Of a stretch of 62,896 nucleotides of DNA, positions 3 to 56,439 are shown one piece after another. The first letter of the stretch is position 1; each line of letters starts with the position of its first letter. The position numbers and the translations under genes are program-made. Origin of the DNA: Bacteroidia bacterium (lineage in GTDB: Bacteria; Bacteroidota; Bacteroidia; UKL13-3); contig JAUCCO010000003.1 of NCBI GenBank assembly GCA_034676125.1, positions 1-62,896 of the forward strand, given 5' to 3'. The notes under the pieces are model-generated. The model ran no database searches. It was not told the origin of the DNA and worked only from the letters and a program-made list of their open reading frames with translations.

Positions 3-338
3 AGCATTACCTATCATGGAGAAGACACAAACATTGATGCTGATATTTTTGTACATATAGGCATGTTAATTAACGAATTGATAACAAACTCATGTAAGCA
101 TAACATAGTTAGCGGCACAAGTATAAATGTGAATATACAATTAAAAAAAACGGGGTTAAATAGCTTACAAATTACATATGCTGATAACTCTGGTGGGTAT
201 AACTTACAAAAATTTAAAAATCCAAATACGATGGGATTATTGATAATAAAAAACATAGTACAAAACCAATTAAAAGGTGAAATAAATGTTGAGAATACTT
301 TTGGAGGATGTACTTATACGATAATTTTTAACTATTAA
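3..338 (+). CDS. Sensor histidine kinase, HisKA_2/HWE-type HATPase C-terminus (5'-partial, runs off window start)
   Basis: Frame is open from position 3 (SITYHGEDTNIDADIFVHIGMLINELITNSCKH). N-box (INELITNS.KH), G1 (DNSGG) and G2 (MGLLII) are present, and a response regulator follows 6 bp downstream. Confidence 0.85.
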   Translation, partial: SITYHGEDTNIDADIFVHIGMLINELITNSCKHNIVSGTSINVNIQLKKTGLNSLQITYADNSGGYNLQKFKNPNTMGLLIIKNIVQNQLKGEINVENTFGGCTYTIIFNY

Positions 339-344
339 ACTATA

Positions 345-1379
345 ATGCAATCAAAAATATTAATAGTAGAAGACGAGGCCATAATTGCTTTAGATATAGA
401 GTTAAACTTAAAACAACTTGGTTATGAAGTATGCGGAATATGCAGCGATTACTCAAGTGCAATACAAAAAGTAAAATCAGAAAAACCCAACTTAGTAATA
501 TTAGATATTAACTTAAACAATTCGAAATCGGGGATTGAAATTGCCAATTATATTAGATTAAACCACAATATACCTTATATATTTTTAACAGCCTTTAATG
601 ATAACAAAACATTTAACGAAGCATTAAGCAGCAGCCCTTATGGGTATATTAATAAGCCATTTCAGCATGAGGATTTAAGAAATGTAGTTGCGATTGCCAT
701 TGAAAAATGGAACAACAACAATGATATTGATTTTGAAACAGTGCTAAATTTATTAGATAAAATGGATGAAGCTGCAATCATTATCAACCCAAAAGATGAA
801 GTGGTTGCATTAAACAAATCGTTTCAAAAACTTACGGGATACTTGGTAGACGACTTAAAAAAATCGTTACTAAAAGGTGTGTTTAATGCACATGCAAACA
901 CTTTAACTGGTGAATTAATATTAAGAAATAAGGATATTATTAAAACCCAGTTTGAAATGTACGAAATTAGTGAAACTTCTGAAAACAAGAGTTATAAACT
1001 ATATCAATTTAAGCAAAACAAAACAAAACAAAACTTTGATGGTGCTTTAGGTGAATTGATGAACCAAAACCAATACATATTTATTAAACACAATACCGAT
1101 TTACACAAAGTATTTTTTGATGAAATATTATGGATTGAGGCCATGGATAACTATGTTAAAATAGTAACAGAAAATAAAACTTACGTTGCAAGCTATTATA
1201 TATCAGAAATTGAAACAAAACTACCTTCCTCTATATTCATTAGGGTTCACCGATCTTATATTGTTTCGCTAAAAAAACTAGCAAAAATTATTGAAAACGG
1301 AGTAATTATTAACGAACAAACTATTCCTGTTAGTAGAAGCTACAAGCCTATATTACTATCAAAAATTAACACCATTTAA
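345..1379 (+). CDS. Response regulator with REC, PAS-like and LytTR domains
   Basis: REC: ILIVEDE, LDINL, FLTA, KPF. PAS-like middle: DEAAIIINPKDEVVALNKSFQKLTGY. LytTR C-terminus: ILWIEAMDNYVKI and FIRVHRSYIV. Confidence 0.9.
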   Translation: MQSKILIVEDEAIIALDIELNLKQLGYEVCGICSDYSSAIQKVKSEKPNLVILDINLNNSKSGIEIANYIRLNHNIPYIFLTAFNDNKTFNEALSSSPYGYINKPFQHEDLRNVVAIAIEKWNNNNDIDFETVLNLLDKMDEAAIIINPKDEVVALNKSFQKLTGYLVDDLKKSLLKGVFNAHANTLTGELILRNKDIIKTQFEMYEISETSENKSYKLYQFKQNKTKQNFDGALGELMNQNQYIFIKHNTDLHKVFFDEILWIEAMDNYVKIVTENKTYVASYYISEIETKLPSSIFIRVHRSYIVSLKKLAKIIENGVIINEQTIPVSRSYKPILLSKINTI

Positions 1380-1386
1380 CTATATT

Positions 1387-1415
1387 CATTCACCCCAATA
1401 TAGTTACCACTTACC
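1387..1415 (+). promoter_or_regulatory. Possible LytTR binding site (imperfect direct repeat, 21-bp period)
   Basis: CATTCACC at 1387 and CACTTACC at 1408 (6/8 identical), between the LytTR gene and the barrel operon. The match is short, so support is weak. Confidence 0.3.
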
Positions 1416-1485
1416 TTATAAAACCCCATTACTCAACACTAAAAAATTATTAGGCCAATGGTATGCATTTAATTCGAACTACCGA

Positions 1486-3174
1486 ATGCGTACCATGTAT
1501 TTTAAAATATCCATACTATTGATTTGTGTGAGCTTATTAAGCAGTTATACTTGCGCGCAAGACTTGGGTAATATCAATAAAAAAAACATATTTAAATTAA
1601 ATGGGTCGTTTAATATTGGGTATTGGCGCTACCAAGCTAATGGTATTGATAACAGAAGCAACCCGTTTGGTTGGTATGTTGTAGGCTCACCAAATGTATA
1701 TTTAGCGGGTATAAATTTTCCATTTACAGCTATAATTAGCGATCAAGACAGAAGCTTCTCCCAACCTTTTAATCAAGTAGGTGTTAGTCCATTTTATAAA
1801 TGGATAAAAGTACACGCAGGTTACCGAAATTTATTGTTCTCTGAATTTACACTTGGCGGAGCAACTTTTTTAGGAGGAGCAGTTGAACTTACACCAGGTA
1901 AATTAAGGTTTGGCAGCTTTTATGGCAGGCTAAGGCGCAGGGTTGATAATGATTCGCTAATGCCATTTGCTATTTTACCTAGTTACGAAAGATGGGCATA
2001 CGGTGGCAAATTAGGATATGGTAACAATAGTTCTTTTTTAGATTTCATATTCTTGAAATCGAAAGATGAGGTTAAATCTAACGACATTGAAACGTTTAAA
2101 ATTAAGCCTGAAGACAACATTGTATTAGGATTAAACACCGAATTAACTTTTTTTAAAACGGTATCATTGGGTACTAACTTAGCAGCTTCTGCTTTAACTG
2201 CAAATACTTTTTTAGATACCATAAGCTTAGATAGTTTTAGTGGATTTGAACAACTAAGTTTTATAAATGATTGGATAGTATTAAATGCAAGCACCAATGT
2301 AAAATTTGCAGGAAATTCTTTTATTCAAATTAAAGGAAAAAAAGCATCCTTAAAATTTACGTATAGGTATGTTGAGCCAGGATATATGTCGCATGGCGCT
2401 AATTATATACAAGATGATTTGAAACAATATTTAACTTCATCCACCATAAGTTTATTTAAACAAAAGCTGATTTTAAATGCAAGTGCGGGCTTGCAATACA
2501 ACAATTTAGACAACACAAAAATAACGACCTCCGAGCGGACCATTGGCTCGATAAATATGGCCATAATACCTACCAGTAGGTTAAACATAAATTTAAACTA
2601 TGCCAATTTTGGCACCTCAACCCAAGCAGGTACTTCTCAGGTAAATGATTCGATTTATTTAAGCTTAATAAATGAAAACGTAAGCGCAGGTATAAATTAT
2701 AGCATAATTAAAACTAAGCTTAACCACTTAATTAGTATCAATACTTTAATTACAACAACAAACGACCGTAATGAGTTTACCAGAAAATTTACACAAAGCG
2801 ATGTAAAGTTTGGTTCTATTAATTACAATTTGGGCATTAATAAAATTCAGTTAAATATTGGTTTAGGAATTTCTCAAACCTTATTAAATACTTATAATAC
2901 TTATATAACAATACCAGGCGTAAACACCAGTTTACGTAAGGCTTTATTTAAAAAATCGCTAAACCTTATTGTTAATTACAATTACCAAAAACGTACATTA
3001 AATACCAGTAAAGATGGTTCGGTTAGTACCCTAGCAGCAGATGTAAGGTACAACCTTAAAAAACGAAACACATTTACGGTTGGATACACATATACTGAAA
3101 ACTCTAGCTCGATAAAAACTTACAGAACTTATAACGAAAACAGATTAAGAATTCAATATGGCTACACATTTTAA
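1486..3174 (+). CDS. Predicted outer-membrane beta-barrel protein of unknown function
   Basis: Signal peptide ending TCA-Q, alternating amphipathic strands rich in G/N/Y/F, and a C-terminal beta-signal RIQYGYTF ending in an aromatic residue. Confidence 0.75.
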   Translation: MRTMYFKISILLICVSLLSSYTCAQDLGNINKKNIFKLNGSFNIGYWRYQANGIDNRSNPFGWYVVGSPNVYLAGINFPFTAIISDQDRSFSQPFNQVGVSPFYKWIKVHAGYRNLLFSEFTLGGATFLGGAVELTPGKLRFGSFYGRLRRRVDNDSLMPFAILPSYERWAYGGKLGYGNNSSFLDFIFLKSKDEVKSNDIETFKIKPEDNIVLGLNTELTFFKTVSLGTNLAASALTANTFLDTISLDSFSGFEQLSFINDWIVLNASTNVKFAGNSFIQIKGKKASLKFTYRYVEPGYMSHGANYIQDDLKQYLTSSTISLFKQKLILNASAGLQYNNLDNTKITTSERTIGSINMAIIPTSRLNINLNYANFGTSTQAGTSQVNDSIYLSLINENVSAGINYSIIKTKLNHLISINTLITTTNDRNEFTRKFTQSDVKFGSINYNLGINKIQLNIGLGISQTLLNTYNTYITIPGVNTSLRKALFKKSLNLIVNYNYQKRTLNTSKDGSVSTLAADVRYNLKKRNTFTVGYTYTENSSSIKTYRTYNENRLRIQYGYTF

Positions 3175-6100
3175 ACCAATCATTTTATTCATTTTGATAA
3201 TGAGTTTAATGCTAAAAAGCAATGCACAACCAATAAACATTGCAGTTACAATAGTTCCACCTGTTAGTAATGATATTGTGCAAATTTTAAACAACCCTAA
3301 TAAAGTAATGGTTTCAATAACCAATACATCAAATAAGGATTATAGCTTAAAGTTTCATTTAACCATTACTGGAGATAATGGCGTAAAGTTAGTAACAAAA
3401 GAAGACTATGTTCCTAGAAGGGTTTTTAAACTTGGAGCTTTAGAAAGTGTTATGGTTGGGCTTAATGAGTTTACTGATTATGCAATAGAATCTGACCTCA
3501 TTTACTCTGGTATAGACCCCGCACAAGTAATAAGAACGCGAAAAGTACCAGAAGGTAATTACTCATTTTGTATTGAGGCATTTGACTATAACACGCCAGG
3601 AAAAACAGCTCCGTTATCCAGTGGATATCCGAGTGGCTGTGCTTATAATTTAAACTTGGTATTGCTTGACCCACCACAAATTGTATCTGTTGGAAATGGT
3701 GATTGCGGAAACAAACTAACCCCACGTACACCACAGTTGGTTAACCTTATTTGGTTGCCACCTGCTGGTGTATCAAAATTTATTCAATACAAGGTAGAAG
3801 TAGTGGAAGTTTACCCAGCTAATAGAGAAGTAAATGATGCCATATTTAGTTATGGAGCGCCTTTATTTATTGATGAAACAGTTACATCAAACTTGTTTAT
3901 GATTTCTACTATTCAACAACAACTAAAACTTGGGGCTAAATACGCGTTTAGGGTAAAAGCCTTAGACCCAGATAGCCTTACTTCATTTAGAAACAATGGT
4001 TATAGCCAAGTATGTTGGTTTACATATGGCGATGAAGCGAATTATAGTAATGCAAATTTTTCGAGCCAAGTATTATTTCCAATTGAAGGAGATACAATAC
4101 CATTCATATCTCCCCCAATAATTTTAAAAACCACACCTGTAGATGTAAATTTAATATCGCTTAACAATACCATAAGTCAATTGCGTAATGGCATATCAAT
4201 AAACAATATTATAAAAAACTATACTTTTAGCCCTTCATTTACAGCTTATGCGCGCAGTAAAAACAATGGCATAAATGTTAGTAATAGCGATTTACAAAAA
4301 TGCATTTTACCAACAACTATTTCATTTGGCAACCAACTTGCACAAGTAAGAGGTGTGCAATACGACTTGCAAGTAAATAGCGAATACGAAATAAATAATA
4401 ACCCAATAAAACAAACCATTATTAGTACATCAAACTATACTTATGGAATGCCAACTCCACAATTAATAAGCCCCGAAAACAATGCAGTTTTAGATGAAGG
4501 AAACGTTAGTTTTAGGTTTAAAACCTGCGATAATTGTAGTAATCCATTTACCAACCAAGAGTTAAATAACTTAAGGCCAATAAAGGCTATATACGATTTT
4601 GAGAACTTAGTAAAAGTAAATGAAACTTTAGTTCTTGAAATTGCTAACAATGTAAATTTCAGTACCATTATAGCCAATAGAATAGTTCGGTTAAACTTTG
4701 AAACAGATGTAACCCAAATTGGTTCGGTATACGATTCGGTCTTTAAAACCTTTCAAATTAATGTGCCAAATTTAACTAGTGGTATTTATTATTGGCGAGT
4801 AAAATACTTAAACAATCCAGATACTTCTTTACATGATTTTAGCGCCTACAGAATAAGTGCGGCAAACAAAATAAACATTGGAAGATACAATAACGACAAC
4901 AATTCACCATGCGCTGCAAGTACATGTGAAGGTCAAGCAGTAGCTCAAAACCAAAGAATAGCACAATCAAATTTAGCTGTGGGAGCTAGTTTAAAATTTG
5001 GCGAATTTAACATGGTGGTAAGTAGTATTAGTGCATCAGCCAACAGTCAATTTTCTGGTGAAGGGATTATACTCATTAATCCATTTCCTAACGGTAATAA
5101 TGGAGCAAGTTTTTATCCAATTAAAGTTGCATTTACCAATATTCAATACAATAGTTTAAATCAAATTTATGCTGGTAGTGCAACAACAATAAACAACAAT
5201 ACCAATAATATTTGGAATGCTATAACTAATGTATCAAGCCCGCAAACCGCTAATACAAATACAATAAGCCAAATTTGTCATACTGCTCAAATAGCACTTT
5301 CATCAAACAATGCCAACAACCAAAATGGAGTAAATACGCCATTTATTATACCCATTTTAAAACATGCGTTCGAGTACAATTTTACAGTGCTAGGTATTTC
5401 CTTTACACCAACATCGGCCAAAATGAATTGCGCCTTAAATATGCAAGGAGTAAAAGAAAACAAACAATATACATTTATGGGTTCAGCACTTTGTTTAAAA
5501 GCTAATGGATGGGCAAAAGAAAGTGTAGAAATGAACTTGCTAAATGATGTTAGTTTTAACTTTTTTGATTCGGAAATACTAGTAGAAGGTTTTAAAAACG
5601 ACAGCGCAAACACACGTGCTGTATGGGATTGTAGCGGATTTAAACATGCACATATTGAAGGTAATATTAAGTTTTCGAGAAACATTATTAAACCAACAAA
5701 TTCGAGTAATCCAACCTATAAAGTTATAGGATATTATGCTACTAATATTATTTCATTTAATGATATAATGTATAGAATTGCAATTAACGAGCCTTATCAA
5801 TTTGGCATAACAGGAAAACAAATTGAAGTGAACTCGCCAGAAATTTACATTGATAGAAGTGGAACTACAAATCCCCCCAATTTAATTGCACCAGCACAAT
5901 ATAATGGTGCAATTACTAACCAATGGAATGGATTGTTTTTCCCTACATTAAACATCACGCTTAAACTATTTCCTGGTAAAAATATTCAGGCAACAAACTT
6001 CTTTTATGATGGAGAATTTACAGGCAGAGTAGCTATTACAAATGCAATTGCTGAAAGTACTTTTTTAAATTCAGTAAAATTATCAGTTGATAGTTTAGAT

Positions 6101-9100
6101 ATAAATATCGTTCAAGATAATTTTTTAAATTATCACTTAACTGGACTATTAGATCCCGGATTTGACGAAACACTTAGGCTAAATTACACAATGGATGTGG
6201 ATGTGCCAGATAGCACAGGCGAAGCATCAGTGCATGGAAGAGTAATGATGAACGAGGTATTGCCCTTAAAGTTTCTGAAGGCAAATTTTAATGTAGCGCG
6301 CACCAGTAGTTTTACTTTTGATGTAACAAACGATGATTATAGCATGTTGCTATTGCTTAATGGAAGTTTATCTATTGCAGCCGATTTAGATAATATTGGC
6401 CAAATAGATTTACCACAATTAACTGTACAAGGAATGAAGTTTCATTATTCATCAGACCCTAACCACAAATTCTTTACAGGAGGCACTTATTCGTTTGCTA
6501 GTCCGCAAAAAACTATTGGAGGTTACCCCATAAACATTAGTGCAATTGAGGAATTTAGCTTACCACAAAACCGTAACTTTGGTATAAATATAGTTTATGG
6601 TTTATCGTTAGGTTCACAAGCCGATGCATTTAGCGTAACAGGTAATTTGGCATTAAAAGCTAAAACCGAAATAACAAATAACAATATTAAATTTTCGTTT
6701 GTTGGCTCGTCTTTCGATTCATTAAATATATCAGGAAAAATTAGTGTGGTTGATGTATTGGGTAAAATATACTTTTATAAAAACAATCCAACCTATGGCA
6801 ATGGTTTAAAGGGCAGCGTAGAAGCTGATTTTGAACCTGGTGTTAAAATTGTTGCTCAAGCATATTTTGGACAATTTAGAAACAACCAAAATGTAAATAA
6901 TTATTGGGGAATTTATGGTGGAGCCAAATTTAATGAAGCCATTCCAGTATTAGGCGTAATGGAATGTAATGCATTTGCAGGAGGTGTTTATTACAACATG
7001 AAATTGAATGAAAACAATACTAATGTAAATATAAGAAGGGTACTAGCGCCAAATTTAAACAACATTACGGTTTCACTAATTCCACAAGCTAATACAACAG
7101 GATTTTCTGCTAAAATATGGTTACAAAGCACAGGTGGAGGAGATTCATATAAATCACTTTCAACTATCGGTGCTGTGTTTAACACCAATTCATGGTCGCT
7201 AAGGGAACTGTATTTAAGAGGCAATATGTGGTTAATGCCAGAGGATAACAAGGATGTGCCCGTTTGGGCTGATATGAATGTAAATTTAGATTGGACCAAC
7301 CATTCACTTAGTGGCAATTTTAATGCTTACATACAAAGTACAGGCATACAAGGCATCGGGAATAATTACCGAGCTGGATATATTGATTTATTTATTTCTG
7401 CAAATCAATGGCATATAAGAGTGGGTACACCTGACAATAGAATAGGTGTAACTGTTCCCGACCTAGGTGCAGAATTAAATGCATATTTATGCATAGGATC
7501 AATAGTTCCGGGTGTGCCACAACTACCAGATAGAATTAAAAACGTTTTACAAAACACACAAATTGGAAACTTTAGGGATGCAAACGTGGCGAGTGGAAAA
7601 GGGTTTGCATTTGGAGCATTTTTTAATTTTAATCCACCACCAAAAACCTTTTTAATATTACGAGGTGATTTAGATTTAATGCTAGGATTTGATATTTCAT
7701 TGATTAAATATGATGGCCCAGTTTCGTGTGATGGAGTAACCAATAGAAGTAGTTTAGGCTTTAACAACTGGTATGCACAGGGCCAAATATATGCTTATGT
7801 TTATGCAAGTTTAAGTATACATATTGATGTTTGGTTTGCTGAAGGAAACTTTAATATTTTTAGAGGCGAAGCTGGTGTAGCAATGGCTGGAGGCTTACCA
7901 AATCCAACTTGGGCTACTGGTGCAATGGCAGGTAAATATAGGTTATTTGGAGGGTCTATAAAGGGTAGATTTACATACGAATTTACTTTAGGCGATGTAT
8001 GTAGGCCAACACAAACAGTTGAAAACCCTGTGGCCGAATTAAAAATAATTGAGTCTGTTAACTTGGCTAATAACAGCAGAAACATTTCACCATTTGCAAC
8101 ATTTAGTGCTGCATTAAATTTTAAACCAAACCAAGCTTTTTCAATTGAATTAACTGATAATAACGGAGTAGATTATATTAGAACATTTAGAGCCAAAGTT
8201 AATCCTAGAATTCAAAATGGAAACTTAATTACTGCCATTACTAGCCAAGTAAATACACAAGCCGAAGGAGAAGATGAATATTATGTTATGGATGTAAACC
8301 ATGCTACCGCATTAAATGGAAACACTAATTATGTATTAACTTTTAACAGCCATTTTGAAGAAAAGAAAAATAATACATGGGCCGTAGCCCAGAAAAATAA
8401 TGGAGAAGAAGTACGAGAGGTAAGAACAATAAACTTCACCACAGGAGGTTTTCCTGATAAATTAACACAAGATATGATTGAAATGCAAATACCAACACCT
8501 CTTGAAAATTATTTTAAAGTAGTAGACAAGACTAACTCAAGTACTAGTTTACCCAAAATTTTTAGCCTGAGATTTATTCAGAATATAAGACATATTTATT
8601 TTTACGACTCGGCTAGCCATGTGTTGCCTGATATTATTAATGGCGGAACATATAACGGCAAAGTGGCTGTTAATTACATTTTACGGATAATTAATTACAC
8701 CAATAATAGCAGCAACGACTATCCTTTAACTGTTTTATCAAACCAAATAATTTGTAACTTAAATTTGCAAAATATGTTGAGTAATAACTCTATTTACAAG
8801 GCACAGATAATTCGCAAAAAAATTCTGCCAATAGATGTTATAAATCAAAGATTAAACGCAAATGCTAACATTAGTAAAAGGGTAGATAATTTAATTACTC
8901 GTAATAACTACACCATACAAAAACGTAATATTACCTTTAATTACAATGGGGGCAACTTGATAGACAACATTGCTGATGAAGAATTTACGCTATACGAGCT
9001 ATCCTTTAAAACAAGTAAATTTAATAGCATTTACGACAAAATAAATCAATTACAGCTTACAAGTAATAGCCGAGATAATGATTATAGGGTATTGAAAATT

Positions 9101-9721
9101 CGATTTACCTCTCAAGAAAGATTTAGCAATTACGAATTAAACAACGAAATTAAAGTAATAGATTTATACGAAAGAGAAAAGCAATACTTTAGCAAAAGTG
9201 ATAAGCAATATGAAGTTTATAATATCCTTAAACAAAAAGCAAACGGAACAAGATATTCTAGTTTACTAACCAGTCCTGAACCGTTTTTAATAACCAATAG
9301 TTATTATACACAACCAAATATTGAACAATATGTTGCGATTGAATCTAATGTTGACTTTAACAATGGCACAAGTTTAAAAAACCAACTACCAGAACCAACC
9401 AATAACAATATAGTTTTTATTGCTCACCACGAGCAGAGGGTAAGCACCGACAGGCCCAAAATACAAAGTTATTGTGCGCAATATATTTTACTATTAGCCA
9501 ATACCATCCAAAGTTCAAACTTATACAACCAAGTAAACTTATCTGCCAGCGAAAGAAGCAGTGTACAAAGTATAATTAGAACATCTTGGACAAAAAGAAT
9601 GGGATTAGATTTTGACGGAACCTACGTGCCTGATCCCAACCGATATATTCTTAGGTTTATTTTACAGCGCCCAAATGGAAGTTTAGGCTCTATTAAAAAT
9701 TTCTTTTATCAATTAAACTAA
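3158..9721 (+). CDS. Giant exported protein (2187 aa): TANFOR-like N-terminal domain, Fn3-like domains and a long beta-rich core
   Basis: Signal peptide ending SNA-Q. The N-terminus (QPINIAVTIVPP...VPEGNYSFCIEAFDY) resembles the Bacteroidota TANFOR domain as I recall it. Fn3-like segments include LIWLPP...YAFRVKA and PQLISP...YYWRVK. No YPNP-type T9SS CTD. The start overlaps the barrel gene stop by 17 bp. Confidence 0.7.
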   Translation: MATHFKPIILFILIMSLMLKSNAQPINIAVTIVPPVSNDIVQILNNPNKVMVSITNTSNKDYSLKFHLTITGDNGVKLVTKEDYVPRRVFKLGALESVMVGLNEFTDYAIESDLIYSGIDPAQVIRTRKVPEGNYSFCIEAFDYNTPGKTAPLSSGYPSGCAYNLNLVLLDPPQIVSVGNGDCGNKLTPRTPQLVNLIWLPPAGVSKFIQYKVEVVEVYPANREVNDAIFSYGAPLFIDETVTSNLFMISTIQQQLKLGAKYAFRVKALDPDSLTSFRNNGYSQVCWFTYGDEANYSNANFSSQVLFPIEGDTIPFISPPIILKTTPVDVNLISLNNTISQLRNGISINNIIKNYTFSPSFTAYARSKNNGINVSNSDLQKCILPTTISFGNQLAQVRGVQYDLQVNSEYEINNNPIKQTIISTSNYTYGMPTPQLISPENNAVLDEGNVSFRFKTCDNCSNPFTNQELNNLRPIKAIYDFENLVKVNETLVLEIANNVNFSTIIANRIVRLNFETDVTQIGSVYDSVFKTFQINVPNLTSGIYYWRVKYLNNPDTSLHDFSAYRISAANKINIGRYNNDNNSPCAASTCEGQAVAQNQRIAQSNLAVGASLKFGEFNMVVSSISASANSQFSGEGIILINPFPNGNNGASFYPIKVAFTNIQYNSLNQIYAGSATTINNNTNNIWNAITNVSSPQTANTNTISQICHTAQIALSSNNANNQNGVNTPFIIPILKHAFEYNFTVLGISFTPTSAKMNCALNMQGVKENKQYTFMGSALCLKANGWAKESVEMNLLNDVSFNFFDSEILVEGFKNDSANTRAVWDCSGFKHAHIEGNIKFSRNIIKPTNSSNPTYKVIGYYATNIISFNDIMYRIAINEPYQFGITGKQIEVNSPEIYIDRSGTTNPPNLIAPAQYNGAITNQWNGLFFPTLNITLKLFPGKNIQATNFFYDGEFTGRVAITNAIAESTFLNSVKLSVDSLDINIVQDNFLNYHLTGLLDPGFDETLRLNYTMDVDVPDSTGEASVHGRVMMNEVLPLKFLKANFNVARTSSFTFDVTNDDYSMLLLLNGSLSIAADLDNIGQIDLPQLTVQGMKFHYSSDPNHKFFTGGTYSFASPQKTIGGYPINISAIEEFSLPQNRNFGINIVYGLSLGSQADAFSVTGNLALKAKTEITNNNIKFSFVGSSFDSLNISGKISVVDVLGKIYFYKNNPTYGNGLKGSVEADFEPGVKIVAQAYFGQFRNNQNVNNYWGIYGGAKFNEAIPVLGVMECNAFAGGVYYNMKLNENNTNVNIRRVLAPNLNNITVSLIPQANTTGFSAKIWLQSTGGGDSYKSLSTIGAVFNTNSWSLRELYLRGNMWLMPEDNKDVPVWADMNVNLDWTNHSLSGNFNAYIQSTGIQGIGNNYRAGYIDLFISANQWHIRVGTPDNRIGVTVPDLGAELNAYLCIGSIVPGVPQLPDRIKNVLQNTQIGNFRDANVASGKGFAFGAFFNFNPPPKTFLILRGDLDLMLGFDISLIKYDGPVSCDGVTNRSSLGFNNWYAQGQIYAYVYASLSIHIDVWFAEGNFNIFRGEAGVAMAGGLPNPTWATGAMAGKYRLFGGSIKGRFTYEFTLGDVCRPTQTVENPVAELKIIESVNLANNSRNISPFATFSAALNFKPNQAFSIELTDNNGVDYIRTFRAKVNPRIQNGNLITAITSQVNTQAEGEDEYYVMDVNHATALNGNTNYVLTFNSHFEEKKNNTWAVAQKNNGEEVREVRTINFTTGGFPDKLTQDMIEMQIPTPLENYFKVVDKTNSSTSLPKIFSLRFIQNIRHIYFYDSASHVLPDIINGGTYNGKVAVNYILRIINYTNNSSNDYPLTVLSNQIICNLNLQNMLSNNSIYKAQIIRKKILPIDVINQRLNANANISKRVDNLITRNNYTIQKRNITFNYNGGNLIDNIADEEFTLYELSFKTSKFNSIYDKINQLQLTSNSRDNDYRVLKIRFTSQERFSNYELNNEIKVIDLYEREKQYFSKSDKQYEVYNILKQKANGTRYSSLLTSPEPFLITNSYYTQPNIEQYVAIESNVDFNNGTSLKNQLPEPTNNNIVFIAHHEQRVSTDRPKIQSYCAQYILLLANTIQSSNLYNQVNLSASERSSVQSIIRTSWTKRMGLDFDGTYVPDPNRYILRFILQRPNGSLGSIKNFFYQLN

Positions 9722-9725
9722 AGTT

Positions 9726-11759
9726 ATGAAAAAATACATCTCATTGCTAATCGTGTTTTTTGCGCTAATCATGCATGTTAAAGCCCAAAAAACATGCATG
9801 GAAGCAAACTACCAATACAACAACAATAACCTAAAAATTAGGTGGATTTTAAGTGATTATATTTCGTGGAAAACTGCTATAAAAAATGGTATTCAAATTG
9901 AAAAAGTAACTTTAAATAATGATTTGAATATTGCAGAAACTAAAACAATTTTTAATGCACTTAAACCTGCAACCCTTGATGACCTAAAAAAGCAGTTTGA
10001 TAAAAATAATAGTTACGCGGGTATTGCCGCTCAAATGCTTTATGGAAAATCTACAGTGGTGGATGATGGTAATTTTGGTACGTTTTTAAAGCACAAAAAA
10101 AACGAACAAGAGTTAAAACATAGTATTGCTATGTATAGCGCTGCCTTAGATTTTAATGTGGCAAAAGCAATTGCATTGGGTTATGAAGAGGAAGTACAGC
10201 CAAATAAAAACTATATTTATAAGTTAGTAATTAATGGTGCTACTTGCGATACGTTTTATTTATTGGTAAATACATTTGAGGTTACTCCAGAAACAAAGAT
10301 TTCGGCTACACTAAATGCCACTCCATCAGAAAAATCTGTAATATTAAATTGGAATGCAACACAAGATGATATTATCGGTTATTACCTAGAAAAAAGCCCT
10401 GCTAATTCGGATAAATTTACAAGAATTAACCAGCAACCTTTTGTACTTATTGAAAACAAATACAATAAAGAAACCTTACAGCATATTGATTCGGTCGAAA
10501 AAAATTATCAACCTTATCAATACCGGTTAATTGGTGTTAATGCTTATGGCGAAGAAACTAAACCATCACCAATAATAGTGGCAATGGGTAAAGATGTTAC
10601 CGCGCCAGGCCAACCAAGTATTACTAAAATAGATGTTAAAGCCAATGAAATGTTGATTGTGCATTGGAAACAAAATGCAAAAGAAAAGGATTTAATAGGG
10701 TTTAATGTATTACGTGCACCTAATATCGATGGACCATTTATTAAACAAAACAGCACTTTAATTAAAATAACCGAAACTATTTATTATGATTTAAAACCCA
10801 ATATTGGTGGCAATAACTTTTATATAATTGAGGCTATAGATACAGCAGGAAACACAAGTAATTCGTTACCAAGGCAAGGAATTATGACCGATACAATTGC
10901 ACCACATTGCCCTACAATAATTAGTCAAACAAAAATTTCAGATGGCTTGGTTGTGCTTAATTGGCAAAAACCAACAGCGTTAGATGTAATGGGATATAGG
11001 GTATATTTTTCTAACAGTAATACGCATGTATTTTCAATGGCATCAAAAAGCATCTTATATGATACGGTATTTTATGATAACTTAAATATAAATACCTTAA
11101 CAACTAAAGCATATTATAAAGTGCAAGCTTTAGATTTTAGCTACAACGAATCGAAGAATTGCCCGAGCATAGAAATTATAAGAAAAGATACCATAAAACC
11201 AGAAAACGCATTGTTAACACAAGTATCAATTGTTGATAATGGATTTAAGGTGGAATGGATTCCATCAACCAGTAAAGATGCGGATAAAGTATTAGTAAAA
11301 AGACGAAATAAAACATTAAATAAGTGGGAAACTATATATACCGGCAACAACTTTACCGATTCGCTTTTTATTGATAATAATATAACATTTAACCAACGAA
11401 ACGAATATGCAATTTGCACCATCGATTTAAGCGGCAACTCCACTCCCCTTTCAAAACCTTTTGCAGTAATTAATAAAAAAAGCATTCAAATGAAAGGTAC
11501 ATCAAACCTAAAAATAACCAATATTAATGGCCAATATAAACTTACATGGGATAGGATTTTAGCAGAAGATGAATGGTTTATTATTTACCAAACAACAGAT
11601 AATGGCCAAACAGCTAATGTTATTGACAAACAGCTGCTAAACGAATTTATCTTACCCAAAAGATTTTGTTCCGATAGCTATAGTTTTGGCGTATCGGTAA
11701 TTAACAAAAACGGCAAACAAAGTAAAATTGATAATTGGGTAACCATAAAAACAGAATAG
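9726..11759 (+). CDS. Exported fibronectin type III repeat protein
   Basis: Signal peptide ending VKA-Q. Tandem Fn3 signatures: VILNW...YYLEK...YQYRLIGVN...S; PGQP...IVHW...GFNVLR; LNWQKP...GYRVY...YYKVQALD; KVEWIPS. Starts 4 bp after the giant gene. Confidence 0.8.
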   Translation: MKKYISLLIVFFALIMHVKAQKTCMEANYQYNNNNLKIRWILSDYISWKTAIKNGIQIEKVTLNNDLNIAETKTIFNALKPATLDDLKKQFDKNNSYAGIAAQMLYGKSTVVDDGNFGTFLKHKKNEQELKHSIAMYSAALDFNVAKAIALGYEEEVQPNKNYIYKLVINGATCDTFYLLVNTFEVTPETKISATLNATPSEKSVILNWNATQDDIIGYYLEKSPANSDKFTRINQQPFVLIENKYNKETLQHIDSVEKNYQPYQYRLIGVNAYGEETKPSPIIVAMGKDVTAPGQPSITKIDVKANEMLIVHWKQNAKEKDLIGFNVLRAPNIDGPFIKQNSTLIKITETIYYDLKPNIGGNNFYIIEAIDTAGNTSNSLPRQGIMTDTIAPHCPTIISQTKISDGLVVLNWQKPTALDVMGYRVYFSNSNTHVFSMASKSILYDTVFYDNLNINTLTTKAYYKVQALDFSYNESKNCPSIEIIRKDTIKPENALLTQVSIVDNGFKVEWIPSTSKDADKVLVKRRNKTLNKWETIYTGNNFTDSLFIDNNITFNQRNEYAICTIDLSGNSTPLSKPFAVINKKSIQMKGTSNLKITNINGQYKLTWDRILAEDEWFIIYQTTDNGQTANVIDKQLLNEFILPKRFCSDSYSFGVSVINKNGKQSKIDNWVTIKTE

Positions 11760-11841
11760 GTGGAATAAAACAAATCAAAAACAGGGCTATTATGCTGGCT
11801 CAAATATCTTTATTAAATTCACCCACAATTTAATAGAGATA

Positions 11842-12576
11842 ATGAACATTTTTGACCTCATAATAAACGATAAAGAACCTGTTACTTTAAGTGATGTGAT
11901 TTTAAGCGACATTAATAAAAACAGCATCGAGCAGCTAATTAAAGAACATAAATACGTTGACGAACTAAGCCAATATGGTTTGCCAGTAAATAATAAAATT
12001 TTATTACATGGCAACTCGGGCTGCGGCAAAACTACTACTGCTAAAGCCATTGCCAATGCTATTAACAAACCTATTTTAACCTTAAATTTAAGCAATGTGG
12101 TTTGCTCGCGAATAGGCGAAACTGCACAAAACATGAAACAAGTTTTTGAAAAAGCTGGAAGAGAAAAAGCAGTATTATTTTTAGATGAGTTTGACCAAAT
12201 AGGCAAAACCCGAGGCAATGATGAAAACGATGTAGGAGAAATGCGTAGGTTAGTAAATACCATCATACAATTGATAGATTATTTCCCTAAACTTGCCATG
12301 TTAATTTGTGCCACCAATCATAAAGAAATTATTGATACTGCTTTGCTCAGGCGCTTTCAGTTAAGCATTAGTTTTGAAATGCCAGTGGATGCCGTTTTGG
12401 ATAAATATTATACTAATTTATTAAGCGTATTTCCTCAAAAAATGCAAAATATTACACGCAAATATGGCATTTCGTTTGCCGAAGCAAAAGACTATACTTA
12501 TACAACTGTAAAAAAACAATTGATTGAAGAGTTAGAAAAAAAAGCGGGTATTGCCTTAACCACACCTAATCAATAA
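11842..12576 (+). CDS. AAA+ family ATPase (single domain)
   Basis: Walker A GNSGCGKT, Walker B LFLDEFD, sensor ATN and arginine finger ALLRRF. Confidence 0.9.
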   Translation: MNIFDLIINDKEPVTLSDVILSDINKNSIEQLIKEHKYVDELSQYGLPVNNKILLHGNSGCGKTTTAKAIANAINKPILTLNLSNVVCSRIGETAQNMKQVFEKAGREKAVLFLDEFDQIGKTRGNDENDVGEMRRLVNTIIQLIDYFPKLAMLICATNHKEIIDTALLRRFQLSISFEMPVDAVLDKYYTNLLSVFPQKMQNITRKYGISFAEAKDYTYTTVKKQLIEELEKKAGIALTTPNQ

Positions 12577-12581
12577 AACCC

Positions 12582-13151
12582 ATGGCTAAAAAAGAAAAAA
12601 AAGAATTAATGCCTGATGAAGTAGAAGCACTAATGGCAACATTAGAAACGCGCTTTACTAAAAACATGAACAGACATAAAGGTTTATCGTGGGATAAAGT
12701 TGAAGCAAAATTATTTGCAAATCCTGAAAAATTATGGGCTTTAAACGAAATGGAGAAAACCCAAGGCGAACCTGATGTAGTTGGATACAACAGCAAAACA
12801 AACGAATTTACTTTTTATGATTGTGCTGCCGAAAGTCCGGCTGGCCGAAGAAGCATTTGTTATGATAGGGCTGGTTTAGAATCAAGAAAAGAGCATCAAC
12901 CCGCAAACACCGCAATTGATATGGCTGCTGAAATGGGTGTAGAACTTTTAACAGAAGAAGAATACAGGTCATTACAACAGCTTGGTAAGTTTGATGCTAA
13001 AACTTCGAGCTGGCTAAAAACACCCGAAAACATTAGAAAACTTGGTGGTGCTATTTTTGCAGATTTTAGATTTGGAACTGTGTTTGTTTACCACAATGGT
13101 GCACAATCTTACTATGGTGGCAGAGGATTTAGAGGCGTGTTAGTGGTTTAA
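12582..13151 (+). CDS. DUF4256 family protein
   Basis: Recognised motifs RFTKNMNRH, EMEKTQGEPD, ESPAGRRSICYD, SSWLKTP and YHNGAQSYY..RGFRG. Confidence 0.8.
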   Translation: MAKKEKKELMPDEVEALMATLETRFTKNMNRHKGLSWDKVEAKLFANPEKLWALNEMEKTQGEPDVVGYNSKTNEFTFYDCAAESPAGRRSICYDRAGLESRKEHQPANTAIDMAAEMGVELLTEEEYRSLQQLGKFDAKTSSWLKTPENIRKLGGAIFADFRFGTVFVYHNGAQSYYGGRGFRGVLVV

Positions 13152-13192
13152 TAATTCGCCACTAACACGCCACAAATCGTAACTAAATTTAG

Positions 13193-14638
13193 TTACAGTT
13201 TAATACAAACATTTTTGGTTTCAGTAAAAAAACGTAAGGCCTCTAAGCCGCCTTCGCGCCCTACTCCACTGCTTTTTACACCTCCAAAAGGCGTGCGTAA
13301 ATCACGTAACAACCAACAGTTAATCCATACAATTCCTGATTGAATATTGGCCGACATTTTATGTGCACGTGTTAAGTTTTCTGTCCAAATGGTAGCTGCC
13401 AAACCATACTCTGTAGAGTTGGCCATTTGTAACACTTCTTCTTCTGTATCAAAAGGTGTAATGGTAACTACCGGACCAAAAATTTCTTCTTGGTTGGTGC
13501 GGCAATCATAACTTAAACCTTCTATTATTGTGGGTGCAATAAACCATCCATTTGCGCAATCGCCATCAACCTTAACTACATTGCCTCCGCTTAGTATAGT
13601 TCCACCTTCTTGCTTGGCTAGTTCAATATAACTAAGCACTTTTTCGAAATGCATTTTACTTACAATGGCACCCGTTTTGGTTTTAGGGTTTAATGGATCA
13701 CCCACAATTAACTCTGCCTTAACTTTAGCTACAAAAGCTTTTTTAAACTGCTCATAAATTGGTCGCTCCACAAATATGCGCGAACCACATAAACATATTT
13801 CACCTTGGTTTAAAAAAGAAGAACGAACCGTTTCGTTTAGCATCTTATCAAAATCACAGTCAGCAAAAATAATATTGGGATTTTTTCCGCCTAACTCTAA
13901 CGATAATTTTTTAAACATTGGAGCAGCAACTCGGGCAATTTCGGCACCTGTTTTTGTGCCTCCTGTAAAACTAATTACCTTAATTTTAGGGTGAGCAGTA
14001 AGTGCACTTCCTACCTTTGTGCCCAATCCGTGAACGATATTTAAAACACCGGCAGGCAAACCTGCTTCTATACAGATTTCGCTTAACAAGAAAGCCGTGT
14101 AAGGTGTGATTTCACTTGGTTTTGCTACCACACAATTACCAGCAGCAATAGCAGGTGCAATTTTCCATGTAAATAAATATAAGGGCAAATTCCAAGGAGA
14201 AATACAAGCCACAACACCAATTGGGGTGCGCAAAGTATAATTTATAGCATGGTTGCCCATTGGATGTGCTTCGCTAGAAAAATGCTCGATAGCAGTGGCA
14301 AAAAAGCTAATATTACTAATGGCCCTTGGCATTTCGCCATTTTTTGATAACCACAATGGTTTACCTTGGTCGATGGTTTCGGCTAAAGCAAACTTGTCGA
14401 TATCACGTTGCAATAAATCAGCAATGCGTAACATTATTTTACTTCGTTTTTCGGTTGGTGTATTGCTCCAACCTTCAAAAGCTGCATTGGCAGCTTGCCA
14501 GGCCAACTCCACATCACGTTCATCACTATCCGGACAAAGGCTATAAACTGCTCCTGTTGATGGATTATAGTTATCTATATATTGGTTTGATATGGGTTGA
14601 ATTAAAGCTCCGTTGATGTAATTTGCTATTTTTTGCAT
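13193..14638 (-). CDS. Aldehyde dehydrogenase, 2-aminomuconate-semialdehyde dehydrogenase (ALDH8A1-like) subfamily
   Basis: ISPWNLPLYLFTWKIAPA, FTGG, LELGGKNP (catalytic Glu), GEICLCGSR (catalytic Cys) and EEIFGPV. Confidence 0.85.
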   Translation of the reverse strand: MQKIANYINGALIQPISNQYIDNYNPSTGAVYSLCPDSDERDVELAWQAANAAFEGWSNTPTEKRSKIMLRIADLLQRDIDKFALAETIDQGKPLWLSKNGEMPRAISNISFFATAIEHFSSEAHPMGNHAINYTLRTPIGVVACISPWNLPLYLFTWKIAPAIAAGNCVVAKPSEITPYTAFLLSEICIEAGLPAGVLNIVHGLGTKVGSALTAHPKIKVISFTGGTKTGAEIARVAAPMFKKLSLELGGKNPNIIFADCDFDKMLNETVRSSFLNQGEICLCGSRIFVERPIYEQFKKAFVAKVKAELIVGDPLNPKTKTGAIVSKMHFEKVLSYIELAKQEGGTILSGGNVVKVDGDCANGWFIAPTIIEGLSYDCRTNQEEIFGPVVTITPFDTEEEVLQMANSTEYGLAATIWTENLTRAHKMSANIQSGIVWINCWLLRDLRTPFGGVKSSGVGREGGLEALRFFTETKNVCIKL

Positions 14639-14900: not shown

Positions 14901-16466
14901 TCAGTTCTGAAAAATAGTTTTATATACATTTTCTATCTGCTCCATTTCTTTAGCATTAAGCTTTCTAAATTCCTTTTCCCGTGCTCGTTTAGATAACACA
15001 CCTTGATTTTGTTCTAGGAAGTTTACAAGAATTGAAATTAGGTTATCAGGCATTTCAAATTCTTCGTCTAAGAATTTTTTAAATTCATCATAATGTGCCA
15101 AATATTTTATTTCATTCGGTATAATGTTTTCAATGGTATCTTTTACACAGTCAAATAAAAACTCTGCTTGTTTTGTTGCATCAAAAAAGCGGTAATAATC
15201 TTTAGTTTGATTGGTTACAGCTATATTATGATCTGGCGTTTCTTCCCACTCAATAAAATTTAATAAAGGCTTTGAATATGATTCTAAAATTAATCTATAA
15301 TCAATAATATGGTTTAAAATAGATGATGAAATAGGAAAGATGATGCCTTGGTCTGAAAATTTCTTTTTTGCTAATATATGATGAATAATATAGCGGTGAA
15401 TTCTTCCATTACCATCTTCAAATGGGTGTATAAATACAAATCCAAATGCAATAACTGCTGCTGCAAGTACTGCATTAAATTCATCCTTTATTAATATTTG
15501 ATTTGCATCAATTAATCCCACCATTAGTTCTTGTATATCTTCGGGTTTTGCCGAAATATGTTCAGGAATAGGCTCTCCCGAATTTCGACCATGCTCACCT
15601 ACAAATCCACCTTTGGTTCTGAAGCTCATTTGAATAAAGCGACTATTTTCAATAACCAACTGCTGTAAACGTATTAACTCCGATTTAGTTAAATCATTAA
15701 TTCCTGCTTGACTAATTGCTACACCCCATCTTGCAGCTCGCTTACTTTTGGGACTTTCTCCTTCTATTGTAAATGATGCTTTAGAATCTTTGAGAAGTAA
15801 AAATGCGGAAGCCCGTTGAATGATATCTTTTCTAATTCCTGCAATTTGTTTTTTATTTATATCAACATAGTTGCAAGATAAGTGCTGTTCTATTTTCTTT
15901 GTTTTAGAGACCAATGCACAAAATTGATTTGTTCCAGGCAAGTTGTTTATTACTAAATGCCTAGGCGACTTAAAGCCTTTTACAGCAAACTGTAATTTTT
16001 CATCAATAACCGTAACATAACTTTTCTTGGAGATATCGCTTTTCCCCTTAATTTGTTTTCCCGAAACCCATTCAAGCAAAAACCAAATTCGTCTGGAATA
16101 TTGTCCCAATGGTTCAATATTCACTAATTCTAAAATTTCTTTATTACTTAATACTTCATTTAATTTTGCAAACACTAAAAGATTTACCCCTTCATATTTA
16201 AGGGCAAAAACGAGGTGGTTATAAAGCGCTTCAATTTTTGATTTTTTTTTAGTATCTAAGGGAAGGTACTTATATGGAAATACTTTCCAAGTGCTTGTTT
16301 CAAGTCTTTGGTTCTTCTCAGAAACCATTGTCTTGACTGAAGGATTCGGGATTTGTAAGTCTAGCTTAACTATTATTGCAACATATCCTACTATCCATCC
16401 CTGATAGGTTTTTTCTTCCCAATGAATTATGGGCGCATTGTCAGAAAAATAAGCGCTATTAACCAT
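14901..16466 (-). CDS. Fic family protein (putative AMPylase, class II with internal inhibitory helix)
   Basis: Canonical Fic motif HPFEDGNGRIHR. The upstream SFTIEG matches the (S/T)xxxE(G/N) inhibitory motif. Confidence 0.92.
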   Translation of the reverse strand: MVNSAYFSDNAPIIHWEEKTYQGWIVGYVAIIVKLDLQIPNPSVKTMVSEKNQRLETSTWKVFPYKYLPLDTKKKSKIEALYNHLVFALKYEGVNLLVFAKLNEVLSNKEILELVNIEPLGQYSRRIWFLLEWVSGKQIKGKSDISKKSYVTVIDEKLQFAVKGFKSPRHLVINNLPGTNQFCALVSKTKKIEQHLSCNYVDINKKQIAGIRKDIIQRASAFLLLKDSKASFTIEGESPKSKRAARWGVAISQAGINDLTKSELIRLQQLVIENSRFIQMSFRTKGGFVGEHGRNSGEPIPEHISAKPEDIQELMVGLIDANQILIKDEFNAVLAAAVIAFGFVFIHPFEDGNGRIHRYIIHHILAKKKFSDQGIIFPISSSILNHIIDYRLILESYSKPLLNFIEWEETPDHNIAVTNQTKDYYRFFDATKQAEFLFDCVKDTIENIIPNEIKYLAHYDEFKKFLDEEFEMPDNLISILVNFLEQNQGVLSKRAREKEFRKLNAKEMEQIENVYKTIFQN

Positions 16467-54843: not shown

Positions 54844-56439
54844 ATGAAAAACCTCTACTTTGTTATTCTTACCCTATTCTTATTTAACTATAACACTAAG
54901 GCCCAAAAAATAATATTAGAAGATAATGTTATAGAAATTAACTCTTTAGTGAAATTAGATAAAGATAAAGCAATAATATCTTGCAAAATATACAGTCCAT
55001 ACGCTATAGTGCAACCCAATGCACTAAAAATGTACACGGTAAATAACCTTACCAATTTTTCGTTAACACAAACTATTGATAATTTAGCACCAGATATTGT
55101 TTCATGGAGTCACCATGCCATATTTTTAAATAAGCCAGATACCATTACGGTTATTACCAATTATTTAAACACAACTGATACAACTGTAGGCTTAGCAGTA
55201 TTATTTTTAAATTACAATTTAAAGGTTATAAAAAAGCAATTTTACAAGTTTAATTTACCTTTTAAATACCCCGGTTTAAAAAACTCAGACATTGTTCCTT
55301 TTAATGTTAAAGCCAATGGCTCAAAAGGCTACTATGGCACAACTACCATTATTAACAGTAAAAATAATAGTTTATGGTCGATAGGTGCTCCTGTGGTTGA
55401 AGTACTTTTTGATTTGGATGAAAACTTAAACCTTAAGGTAATGAAAAACATTGTTTCAGACAGTGTAGAATTGGGTGATGATTTTTTTTTAAAAGCTTTT
55501 AATGTACTTGGTTTGATGAAAACCAAAAATGGTTACCGGTTGCAGGGCGAACATAGTTTAGCTTTTAACTTAGATTCAGTTTTTAATATAACCAATCATA
55601 CTTATACTCAACCATGGGAATCGAATTGGATGTTAGACGGATCAATAAGTTACCGCAAAACAAAATGGGGTTACCAATCAGTAGCCATACAACTAACCGA
55701 CTCTAGCAACATTAATAATTTTCCTGAAAGTGCAGTAATTAATAGGCTAAACTTACTGCGGTTGCGCAACTATGATAATAATGCCAACATACTTGATGAA
55801 CGTTTAATGCGGTTACCAAACCAAGCCGACTCGGCAGAGGTAAGAATATGGGAGAACAGCACGGTTATATATGAAAACAACTTACAACTTAGTAACCTAA
55901 ACCTAGAATCATTTAATACCAATAACAATGGCGAGGCTATTTATGGATATTACCCTATTATCAGATTGGGTGATTTAAGCTCGATAAGACGATATAGCTT
56001 AATACTTTTTGATAGCACACTTAACCTTAAAAATGCCAACACTTTTTATGAAGAAAGAACAACTTTAATAAACAGTATTTTGCTTGAAGACAATGGAAAT
56101 ATATGGGTAAGCGGTTATCACACAGGCACTATTCCAACAAAAAACTACTTGAGGCTTATTACCAAAGCAGCGTTTTATACGGGTTTGCCATCTTTTAAAA
56201 ATCAAGAAACTAAAATTAATATCTACCCAAACCCAGCAAGCAATTACATCAACACAAGCACATTGCCATTAAACAGCATTTTAAATATTTACGATTTATC
56301 GGGCAGGGTTTTAAAATCTACTACATCAACCCAAAACAATAACCTAAGTATTGTTGATTTAGAAACGGGTATTTACTTAATAGAACTAATAACCCCAAAC
56401 GGCAAAATAGCTAGAAGCAAATTTGTTGTTTCGCGGTAA
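54844..56439 (+). CDS. T9SS-secreted hypothetical protein
   Basis: Signal peptide ending TKA-Q; CTD INIYPNPASNYI...IYDLSGR...LETGIYLI...KFVV. Confidence 0.88.
   Translation: MKNLYFVILTLFLFNYNTKAQKIILEDNVIEINSLVKLDKDKAIISCKIYSPYAIVQPNALKMYTVNNLTNFSLTQTIDNLAPDIVSWSHHAIFLNKPDTITVITNYLNTTDTTVGLAVLFLNYNLKVIKKQFYKFNLPFKYPGLKNSDIVPFNVKANGSKGYYGTTTIINSKNNSLWSIGAPVVEVLFDLDENLNLKVMKNIVSDSVELGDDFFLKAFNVLGLMKTKNGYRLQGEHSLAFNLDSVFNITNHTYTQPWESNWMLDGSISYRKTKWGYQSVAIQLTDSSNINNFPESAVINRLNLLRLRNYDNNANILDERLMRLPNQADSAEVRIWENSTVIYENNLQLSNLNLESFNTNNNGEAIYGYYPIIRLGDLSSIRRYSLILFDSTLNLKNANTFYEERTTLINSILLEDNGNIWVSGYHTGTIPTKNYLRLITKAAFYTGLPSFKNQETKINIYPNPASNYINTSTLPLNSILNIYDLSGRVLKSTTSTQNNNLSIVDLETGIYLIELITPNGKIARSKFVVSR

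Follow-up and report, generated by a model that had tools for sequence, protein, structure and literature searches.

A conserved gene trio of Bacteroidota and the proposed pairing of a predicted outer-membrane barrel with the head of giant TANFOR-type proteins

TANFOR proteins (TIGR02542) were proposed to be polymorphic toxins of Bacteroidetes by Jana, Salomon and Bosis in 2020 (PMC7073777). The TANFOR domain is N-terminal, about 87% of the proteins have Sec signals, and the C-termini often carry nuclease, lysozyme or ADP-ribosyltransferase domains that are followed by immunity genes (PMC7073777). Fn3 domains and type IX secretion system (T9SS) cargo domains, namely SprB repeats and Por_Secre_tail, are enriched near TANFOR genes, and T9SS is present in more than 95% of TANFOR genomes; still, the export route is given as unknown, and T9SS is named only as "interesting to speculate" (PMC7073777). 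No follow-up on TANFOR export was found in the literature searched. Here we analyze a three-gene operon at one end of a 62,896-nucleotide stretch of Bacteroidia bacterium DNA (contig JAUCCO010000003.1 of assembly GCA_034676125.1; the window hereafter), which encodes a predicted outer-membrane barrel, a giant protein with a TANFOR-type head and an Fn3-repeat protein. The operon is a widespread cell-envelope module of Bacteroidota and relatives that fits no described system. The feature is real, strongly conserved and tied to the published TANFOR class, and for its function, as read from sequences and models, a plausible mechanism can be put forward.

Like the proteins of that class, the window giant has an N-terminal Sec signal, TANFOR-type and Fn3-like domains, a very large size and an Fn3 neighbor. 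It differs in lacking a C-terminal toxin and an immunity gene, and in a head that scores 24–27 bits against a cut-off of 67. In its logic the trio would resemble two-partner secretion and contact-dependent inhibition (CDI; TpsB-TpsA, CdiB-CdiA-CdiI; type Vb) or an usher system, with parts homologous to neither. A barrel gene comes before a giant gene. The giant is conserved in its N-terminal module, which the barrel would recognize, and varies in its distal part, which is exchanged together with the next gene; export would proceed in two steps and depend on Sec. However, the type Vb barrel is Omp85-like with 16 strands and POTRA domains, whereas the trio barrel is predicted to have about 26 strands and shows no POTRA or Bac_surface_Ag match. 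The type Vb passenger carries a TPS (Haemagg_act) domain, while the window giant has neither Haemagg_act nor beta-helix repeats; and the downstream partner in CDI is a small cytoplasmic immunity protein, in contrast to the secreted 677-aa Fn3 protein of the trio. A chaperone-usher test on the trio gave no usher (PF00577) or chaperone match. SprB-SprF and other T9SS type-B cargo come with PorP/SprF-like partner barrels in Flavobacterium. With these the trio shares a Bacteroidota giant, in the trio a putative surface protein, placed beside its own outer-membrane protein, and SprB-type genes often lie near trios. The trio differs from SprB-SprF in having no type-B C-terminal domain (CTD), in a barrel that is about 200 residues larger and encoded upstream, and in a linking element that is N-terminal.

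A preliminary description of the window, made from its letters alone, saw three co-oriented genes that look translationally coupled, and the coordinates of the open reading frames (ORFs) agree: the barrel and giant ORFs share 17 nt (3158–3174), and 4 nt (9722–9725) separate the giant from the Fn3 gene. That description made the recurrence of the trio in other genomes a check of its proposal, and the recurrence is found. A scan of one genome per species yielded at least 585 stretches that encode a barrel relative, of which the best 80 were kept; reciprocally, metagenome contigs were scanned with the giant head and the best 80 matches were kept. The gene after the barrel is a giant (1400–3050 aa) in 69 of the 73 loci with enough downstream DNA, the other four belonging to Ignavibacteria, Kapaibacteria or unclassified bacteria, and the gene after the giant encodes an Fn3 protein (500–740 aa) in 56 of 57 loci. 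Very divergent barrels (24–31% identity) still precede giants and Fn3 proteins. When the search starts from the head, a barrel is present in 57 of the 61 metagenome loci with upstream room, immediately upstream in 51 and just upstream in 2, and the order is permuted to giant-Fn3-barrel in 4 (L121, L136, L149, L167). The 17-nt overlap recurs in Tannerella, Dyadobacter, Spirosoma and Runella. Barrel hosts include Pedobacter, Mucilaginibacter, Spirosoma, Runella, Dyadobacter, Flavobacterium, Chitinophaga and Filimonas, as well as Ignavibacteria, Kapaibacteria and metagenome-assembled genomes of Bacteroidales, and the habitats are soil, water, sludge and the mouth (Tannerella). The trio is thus a conserved module, since recurrence of this gene order in hundreds of genomes is far beyond chance.

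All three products begin with a Sec signal peptide, recognized by eye, that ends before Gln, as the preliminary description had it. The junctions, with the cleavage position marked by a slash, are SSYTCA/QDLG in the barrel, LKSNA/QPIN in the giant and HVKA/QKTC in the Fn3 protein; the complete giant signal peptide is MATHFKPIILFILIMSLMLKSNA, followed by Q. In all three family alignments, conservation of this Gln is 90% or higher. The pattern fits what is usual in Bacteroidetes, where signal peptidase I leaves Gln as the N-terminal residue. The trio proteins had been said to show no catalytic motif, and searches of Pfam and NCBIfam likewise found no enzyme families in them; CxxCH or heme motifs are absent from all three.

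The barrel belongs to a large family. An exhaustive profile search collected 4205 cluster representatives at E≤1e-3, of which 2043 also pass E≤1e-30. Full-length relatives have about 560 aa; every one is labeled "hypothetical" and lacks Pfam domains. Against Pfam and NCBIfam the window barrel matches no family, with only DUF2490/YfaZ below threshold, and its profile has no match among PDB sequences. On these comparisons it is a member of no described family, so that membership in a known family with an unrelated function, which would have spoken against the original proposal, does not apply. An AlphaFold2 model (87 sequences; like the giant model below, of a single chain) has a pLDDT of 91 and a pTM of 0.80. 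It contains 25 long strands and 1 short one, and is therefore read as a barrel of about 26 strands, with two short helices; the secondary-structure map leaves no separate plug domain and no N-terminal soluble domain, and Pfam gives no POTRA-family match. The chain ends in RIQYGYTF, the beta-signal pointed out earlier. Y558 is invariant in a 32-sequence alignment (A1) and nearly invariant in the 87-sequence alignment of the family, while F562 is nearly invariant in alignments A1 and A2 and is the majority residue among the 87 sequences. With a signal peptide, an all-beta predicted barrel and an aromatic C-terminal beta-signal, the 562-aa protein is predicted with high confidence to be an outer-membrane barrel, presumably inserted by the beta-barrel assembly machinery (BAM).

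Structural comparison places the barrel model among large barrels. The top Foldseek match in the PDB is MtrB of the MtrCAB complex (6r2q_B, E 9e-10, TMq 0.52), a TM-score of about 0.5 that stands for a shared barrel size class only. It is followed by Deinococcus SlpA, LptD, the FimD/PapC ushers (TMq 0.39–0.45; FimD 0.42–0.45) and TonB-dependent transporters. MtrB, LptD and FimD/PapC have 24–26 strands and a lumen that holds or passes protein or lipid, and the model would put the trio barrel in the same size class, which is not family membership. The barrel has no sequence relationship to them, its partners have no heme motifs, and it lacks the plug and the N- and C-terminal domains of ushers as well as the jellyroll of LptD.

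The head, which takes up the first ~300 residues with the signal peptide, is the sole portion conserved throughout the giants of the loci compared. In the window giant, residues 26–143 match TIGR02542 with 23.9 bits when the whole protein is searched and 27 bits with the first 350 aa (E 3e-5 to 3.5e-6). The curated NCBI cut-off is 67 bits, and Jana et al. required E≤1e-7 over at least 90 aa; the window head alone reaches neither. Besides TANFOR, Pfam and NCBIfam give a weak fn3 match. However, 45 of 57 aligned orthologous heads match TIGR02542 at E≤1e-3, the best at 9e-19, and because of these matches the profile comparison shows the head to consist of a divergent TANFOR domain and, after it, an Fn3-like one. 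NCBI already names one relative (P0284) "TANFOR domain-containing protein". The giants had been called TANFOR-like and uncharacterised; the likeness has been borne out by the TIGR02542 matches, while "uncharacterised" has to give way to a class that was already published (PMC7073777). A cysteine pair of the head, Cys138/Cys161, is invariant in the alignments, which would fit an oxidizing compartment.

The barrel is not mentioned in the main text of PMC7073777. It escaped the domain-enrichment test of that study because it has no domain model. The supplement tells more. In Supplemental Data 1, the founding giants of Tannerella forsythia (3078–3100 aa, four TANFOR repeats) have an un-annotated signal-peptide protein upstream and an Fn3 protein downstream, and many entries from Dyadobacter, Spirosoma, Runella, Pedobacter, Mucilaginibacter, Sphingobacterium and Chryseolinea are flanked likewise. 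For instance, in rows 231–247 the upstream protein has 535–584 aa and the downstream Fn3 protein about 640–712 aa, and the distance is often −17 nt. Flavobacterium terrae DSM 18829 (WP_073307596.1), listed as TANFOR in that study, is our locus L075, and its upstream protein is confirmed as a barrel homolog. A giant counted as barrel-linked from its entry in this supplement, WP_052449025.1 of T. forsythia, was detected in the proteome table of a vesicle study (PMC10682907).

Sequence identities across loci show that the trio is built from two units. From 53 complete loci, 260 pairs were picked at random and their percent identities compared. Barrel identity follows head identity (r=0.88) and body identity follows Fn3 identity (r=0.89), with lower values for barrel against body (r=0.51) and barrel against Fn3 (r=0.41). 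In two Spirosoma loci (L056 and L062), the identities of barrel, head, body and Fn3 are 85, 78, 21 and 28%; in L069 and L076 they are 95, 92, 45 and 48%. In 6 of 8 close pairs, the giants are 80–97% identical up to residue ~280–320 and about 20% thereafter. Free-standing bodies complete the picture: the giant body is homologous (E 4e-57) to head-less Flavobacterium proteins of about 1600 aa, which precede an Fn3 partner of about 690 aa and occur with no barrel present. By the co-variation, the identity break and this free-standing pair, barrel and head form one unit and body and Fn3 another, joined at a recurrent break near residue 300; the two co-variations, the break and the head-less pair are new observations. 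In Flavobacterium araucananum (L084:10001–24806), a head-less body of 1601 aa and its 693-aa partner are followed by four paralogous proteins of about 400 aa with weak SprB-repeat matches and by a SprB/Por_Secre_tail cargo, and no barrel is nearby.

The Fn3 partner consists of a signal peptide, an N-terminal region of about 190 aa and about five Fn3 repeats (fn3, 1.8e-8). The fn3 family is matched in 42 of 54 orthologs, Por_Secre_tail or CHU_C in none of the 54, and a profile search of PDB sequences returned titin Fn3 repeats only. The partner had been imagined as a periplasmic scaffold or chaperone. A scaffold bound to the barrel is not favored, because the Fn3 protein tracks the body and not the barrel.

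From these observations a mechanism can be proposed. Sec would carry all three proteins across the inner membrane, as their signal peptides suggest, and BAM would insert the 562-aa protein as a barrel of about 26 strands. The head of some 300 residues may recognize the barrel, to judge from gene adjacency, translational coupling and co-variation, and because the head is taken to recognize it, the barrel could act as a dedicated dock and/or translocon. The giant would then be exported or anchored without a T9SS CTD, and its long, variable, beta-rich body would be shown at the cell surface. The Fn3 protein may be cognate to the body rather than to the barrel, acting as a co-assembling subunit, stalk or chaperone. 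Body and Fn3 gene would be swapped as one cassette while barrel and head stay constant, and the neighboring two-component system may switch the operon. To this reading as a whole, with the barrel as dedicated outer-membrane dock and/or translocon of the TANFOR head, we give an even chance.

Several points weigh against it. TANFOR proteins without a neighboring barrel exist (L089), and the barrel is missing from the locus in 4 of the 61 metagenome heads described above. In the table of PMC7073777, a PKD lipoprotein lies upstream of some TANFOR genes and an SprB-type gene upstream of some others. One barrel homolog (L086; 30% identity, E 4e-55) sits 9 nt behind an SprB-repeat T9SS cargo gene and not ahead of the TANFOR gene. 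Independence from T9SS is unreadable from distribution because nearly all TANFOR genomes have T9SS (PMC7073777). The best-80 sampling of both scans leans toward the subtype of the window. Adjacency in DNA, combined with recombination at a domain boundary, could alone give both correlations; a real functional pairing of body and Fn3 is argued for by the existence of that pair without head or barrel.

The absence of T9SS signals is central here. The preliminary description noted that the giant and the Fn3 protein lack the T9SS CTD that two other window proteins carry, and the profile scans concur. Neither protein matches a type A (PF18962/TIGR04183) or type B (PF13585/TIGR04131) CTD even at E≤1. 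As positive controls, the ORFs at 20625–27203 (−; 2193 aa with GBD_T9SS_assoc and NIDO domains) and 54844–56436 (+; 531 aa) match PF18962 Por_Secre_tail at 1e-14 and 7e-11; the missing CTD is therefore not a failure of the tool. The same two type-A CTDs show that the organism has T9SS cargo. In a competing reading, the giant exits through SprA by an unrecognized signal, in line with the T9SS speculation of Jana et al., and the barrel is an anchor or adaptor used after secretion, as PorP/SprF is for SprB-type cargo. The T9SS cargo of the window, T9SS-cargo domains around TANFOR genes and the near-universal T9SS of their genomes (PMC7073777) are consistent with this, as are the GldK-N found in all barrel-type genomes checked in Supplement 5 of that paper, the SprB/Por_Secre_tail gene in front of the L086 barrel, an order like that of sprB-sprF, and the head-less pair of L084 that shares its gene string with SprB-type cargo. 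Against export by SprA, no type A or B CTD occurs in the 57 orthologous giants and 48 further head-bearing proteins (0/105) or in 54 Fn3 partners, and the barrel has no PorP/SprF match (PF11751/TIGR03519) at E≤1 and is far larger (about 560 aa, about 26 strands). The conserved element linked to the barrel is N-terminal whereas T9SS signals are C-terminal, and Sphingobacteriaceae with almost no CTD cargo retain barrel-type giants. An SprA route is thus considered unlikely, yet it is the strongest of the competing explanations. At L086 the barrel homolog is also transcribed divergently from the gene of a 1204-aa TANFOR protein (3693–9635, −, and 10001–13615, +), and a separate body (1480 aa) and Fn3 pair lies farther downstream.

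The body of the giant is of no known type. A word-based homolog search with the full-length giant returned few relatives, and orthologs were taken from the loci instead. No known domains are found in the body. Residues 561–1760 (nt 4838–8437), modeled from 31 sequences, give a pLDDT of 80.7 and a pTM of 0.46. The model is almost entirely beta and made of long, tightly turning hairpins, in which many strands are hydrophobic on one face and polar on the other. A profile of this core matches no PDB sequence, and a Foldseek search of viral structures gave nothing useful. Against the PDB, Foldseek shows local resemblance to LptD, the ApoB100 lipid belt and SlpA; the fold is left unnamed because these matches are only local, with TM-scores of about 0.1. 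An SprA-like giant barrel was considered for the body and is disfavored as a leading reading, given that the C-terminus has no beta-signal and the turns are tight on both sides.

A run of about 1100 residues of such hairpins, with LptD and the lipid belt as its only structural echoes, could also form a periplasmic bridge or groove that is held by the barrel, comparable to TamA-TamB or LptD, and work in the transport of lipids or polymers or in the mechanics of the envelope, Fn3 being a periplasmic strut. CELLO calls the T. forsythia giant periplasmic (PMC10682907), and the body-only relative P0300 bears the UniRef name "DUF490 domain-containing". This name suggested a TamB relationship, which was not found: AsmA/DUF490 families of Pfam match neither the window giant at E≤1 nor P0300 at E≤0.01, and TamB is absent among the top 50 fold matches listed. 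The very low TM-scores, the cleaved signal peptide in place of a TamB-type signal anchor, and the accessory, patchy distribution of a module under presumed two-component control all speak against a bridge. Swapping of body and Fn3 between closely related species (21% identity, with 85% for the barrel) moreover suits exposed parts that evolve fast more than it suits transport of a housekeeping kind. A bridge or groove appears improbable on balance.

TANFOR proteins that end in toxin domains before immunity genes (PMC7073777) raise the question whether the window giant is a polymorphic toxin too, with an unrecognized C-terminal toxin, a barrel that exports it as CdiB does CdiA, and Fn3 as an accessory or protective protein. 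Un-annotated proteins precede BaCT-, EndoU- and TNT-linked TANFOR genes in rows 269–282 of Supplemental Data 1 (549–593 aa in rows 273–278), a size close to that of the barrel, which makes them candidate members of its family. The distal giant is highly variable among relatives, and the motif FIAHHEQ near the end of the window giant suggested an AHH nuclease; PF14412, however, is unmatched at E≤1. Toxin families occur in none of the C-terminal segments of the 57 orthologous giants and the 48 further head-bearing proteins, and the last 450 aa of the 57 giants have no Pfam match at all. Between the window giant and its closest relative (L001), identity stays even through the final residues and shows no switch at the C-terminus, and the variable unit is about 1900 residues long, not a tip of about 150. 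No small immunity-like gene follows the giant: the Fn3 start lies 4 nt past its stop, and later genes are unconserved. We regard a toxin role of the window giant as very unlikely.

The features of the locus are collected in Table 1. Control by the adjacent LytTR two-component system had been suggested, and the association holds in part. In 36 of 64 loci, the 8 kb upstream of the barrel contain a TPR-type kinase and a LytTR regulator, and the LytTR regulator immediately adjoins the trio in L001. However, some loci, divergent-barrel ones among them, have regulators of the Y_Y_Y/AraC and GerE types. In the window, the REC-PAS-LytTR regulator and its kinase would be the switch.

Table 1. Coordinates of the operon, its parts and the adjoining features in the window
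Feature	Position	Strand	Description
Sensor histidine kinase, 3′ end (HATPase_c)	3–338	+	Pfam HATPase_c 1.3e-7; window begins within gene
Response regulator REC-PAS-LytTR	345–1379	+	344 aa; Response_reg 7e-21, LytTR 1.8e-19, PAS weak
Intergenic region	1380–1485	+	106 nt; presumed operon promoter/operator
Barrel gene	1486–3174	+	562 aa; signal peptide, N-terminal Gln, C-terminal beta-signal YGYTF; unannotated family
Giant gene	3158–9721	+	2187 aa
Giant head	3158–4057	+	aa 1–~300; signal peptide, divergent TANFOR domain at aa 26–143, Fn3-like domain at aa 188–269
Giant body	4058–9721	+	aa ~300–2187; almost all-beta, predicted long hairpin meander
Fn3-repeat partner gene	9726–11759	+	677 aa
Terminator-like hairpin	11784–11801	+	25 nt past Fn3 stop; possible operon end, weak

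A promoter scan stayed at chance level with a sigma-70-type consensus, which does not cover Bacteroidota promoters. Terminator-like sites were found by consensus scan at 8 places against 8.1 expected by chance. The genes after the operon, at 11842–13151 (+) and 14901–16466 (−), encode an AAA ATPase of 244 aa, a DUF4256 protein of 189 aa and, farther on, a Fic-domain protein; the first two show no conservation in the other loci examined. A TPR-HisKA-HATPase sensor kinase at 41594–43756 (−) has the architecture of the kinases that adjoin barrel operons elsewhere. In Sphingobacteriales, a protein of about 590 aa that carries a collagen triple-helix repeat at its N-terminus lies directly upstream of the barrel in L017 (8179–9927) and 13 other loci, often preceded by a protein of about 200 aa; it may be an extra component there.

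The sequence was recovered in bioreactor, sludge and wastewater metagenomes. Three wastewater metatranscriptome runs contain short contigs 95–100% identical to the giant and Fn3 genes, within 3270–10145, and almost none on the barrel and flanking genes; coverage is thin. These matches hint only weakly at transcription of the giant and Fn3 genes, since DNA carry-over is possible.

Placed before most giant TANFOR genes and co-varying with their head, the barrel is a concrete candidate for the route of TANFOR export. If it is the exporter or anchor, as we propose, the giants without a CTD would be explained, and a new outer-membrane pathway would exist in a phylum whose large surface proteins are commonly ascribed to T9SS. 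Going further, barrel and TANFOR head may form a previously unrecognized pathway by which the Bacteroidota-Ignavibacteria group secretes or displays proteins at the outer membrane, in which the head is the address label, the barrel is unrelated to Omp85, ushers and SprA, and the payloads are interchangeable, being bodies with Fn3 here and nuclease and other toxins elsewhere; this broader suggestion is a tentative one, which we favor less than the docking role itself. Were it true, the trio would be a functional analog of two-partner secretion and CDI made from different parts, and the exit of TANFOR toxins would be answered. The question is a general one because the module occurs in soil, water, sludge and oral bacteria. 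With the barrel as exporter or anchor, the trio would also exemplify surface diversification by cassette exchange, with body and Fn3 swapped behind a constant head, and head and barrel could serve for surface display in Bacteroidota.

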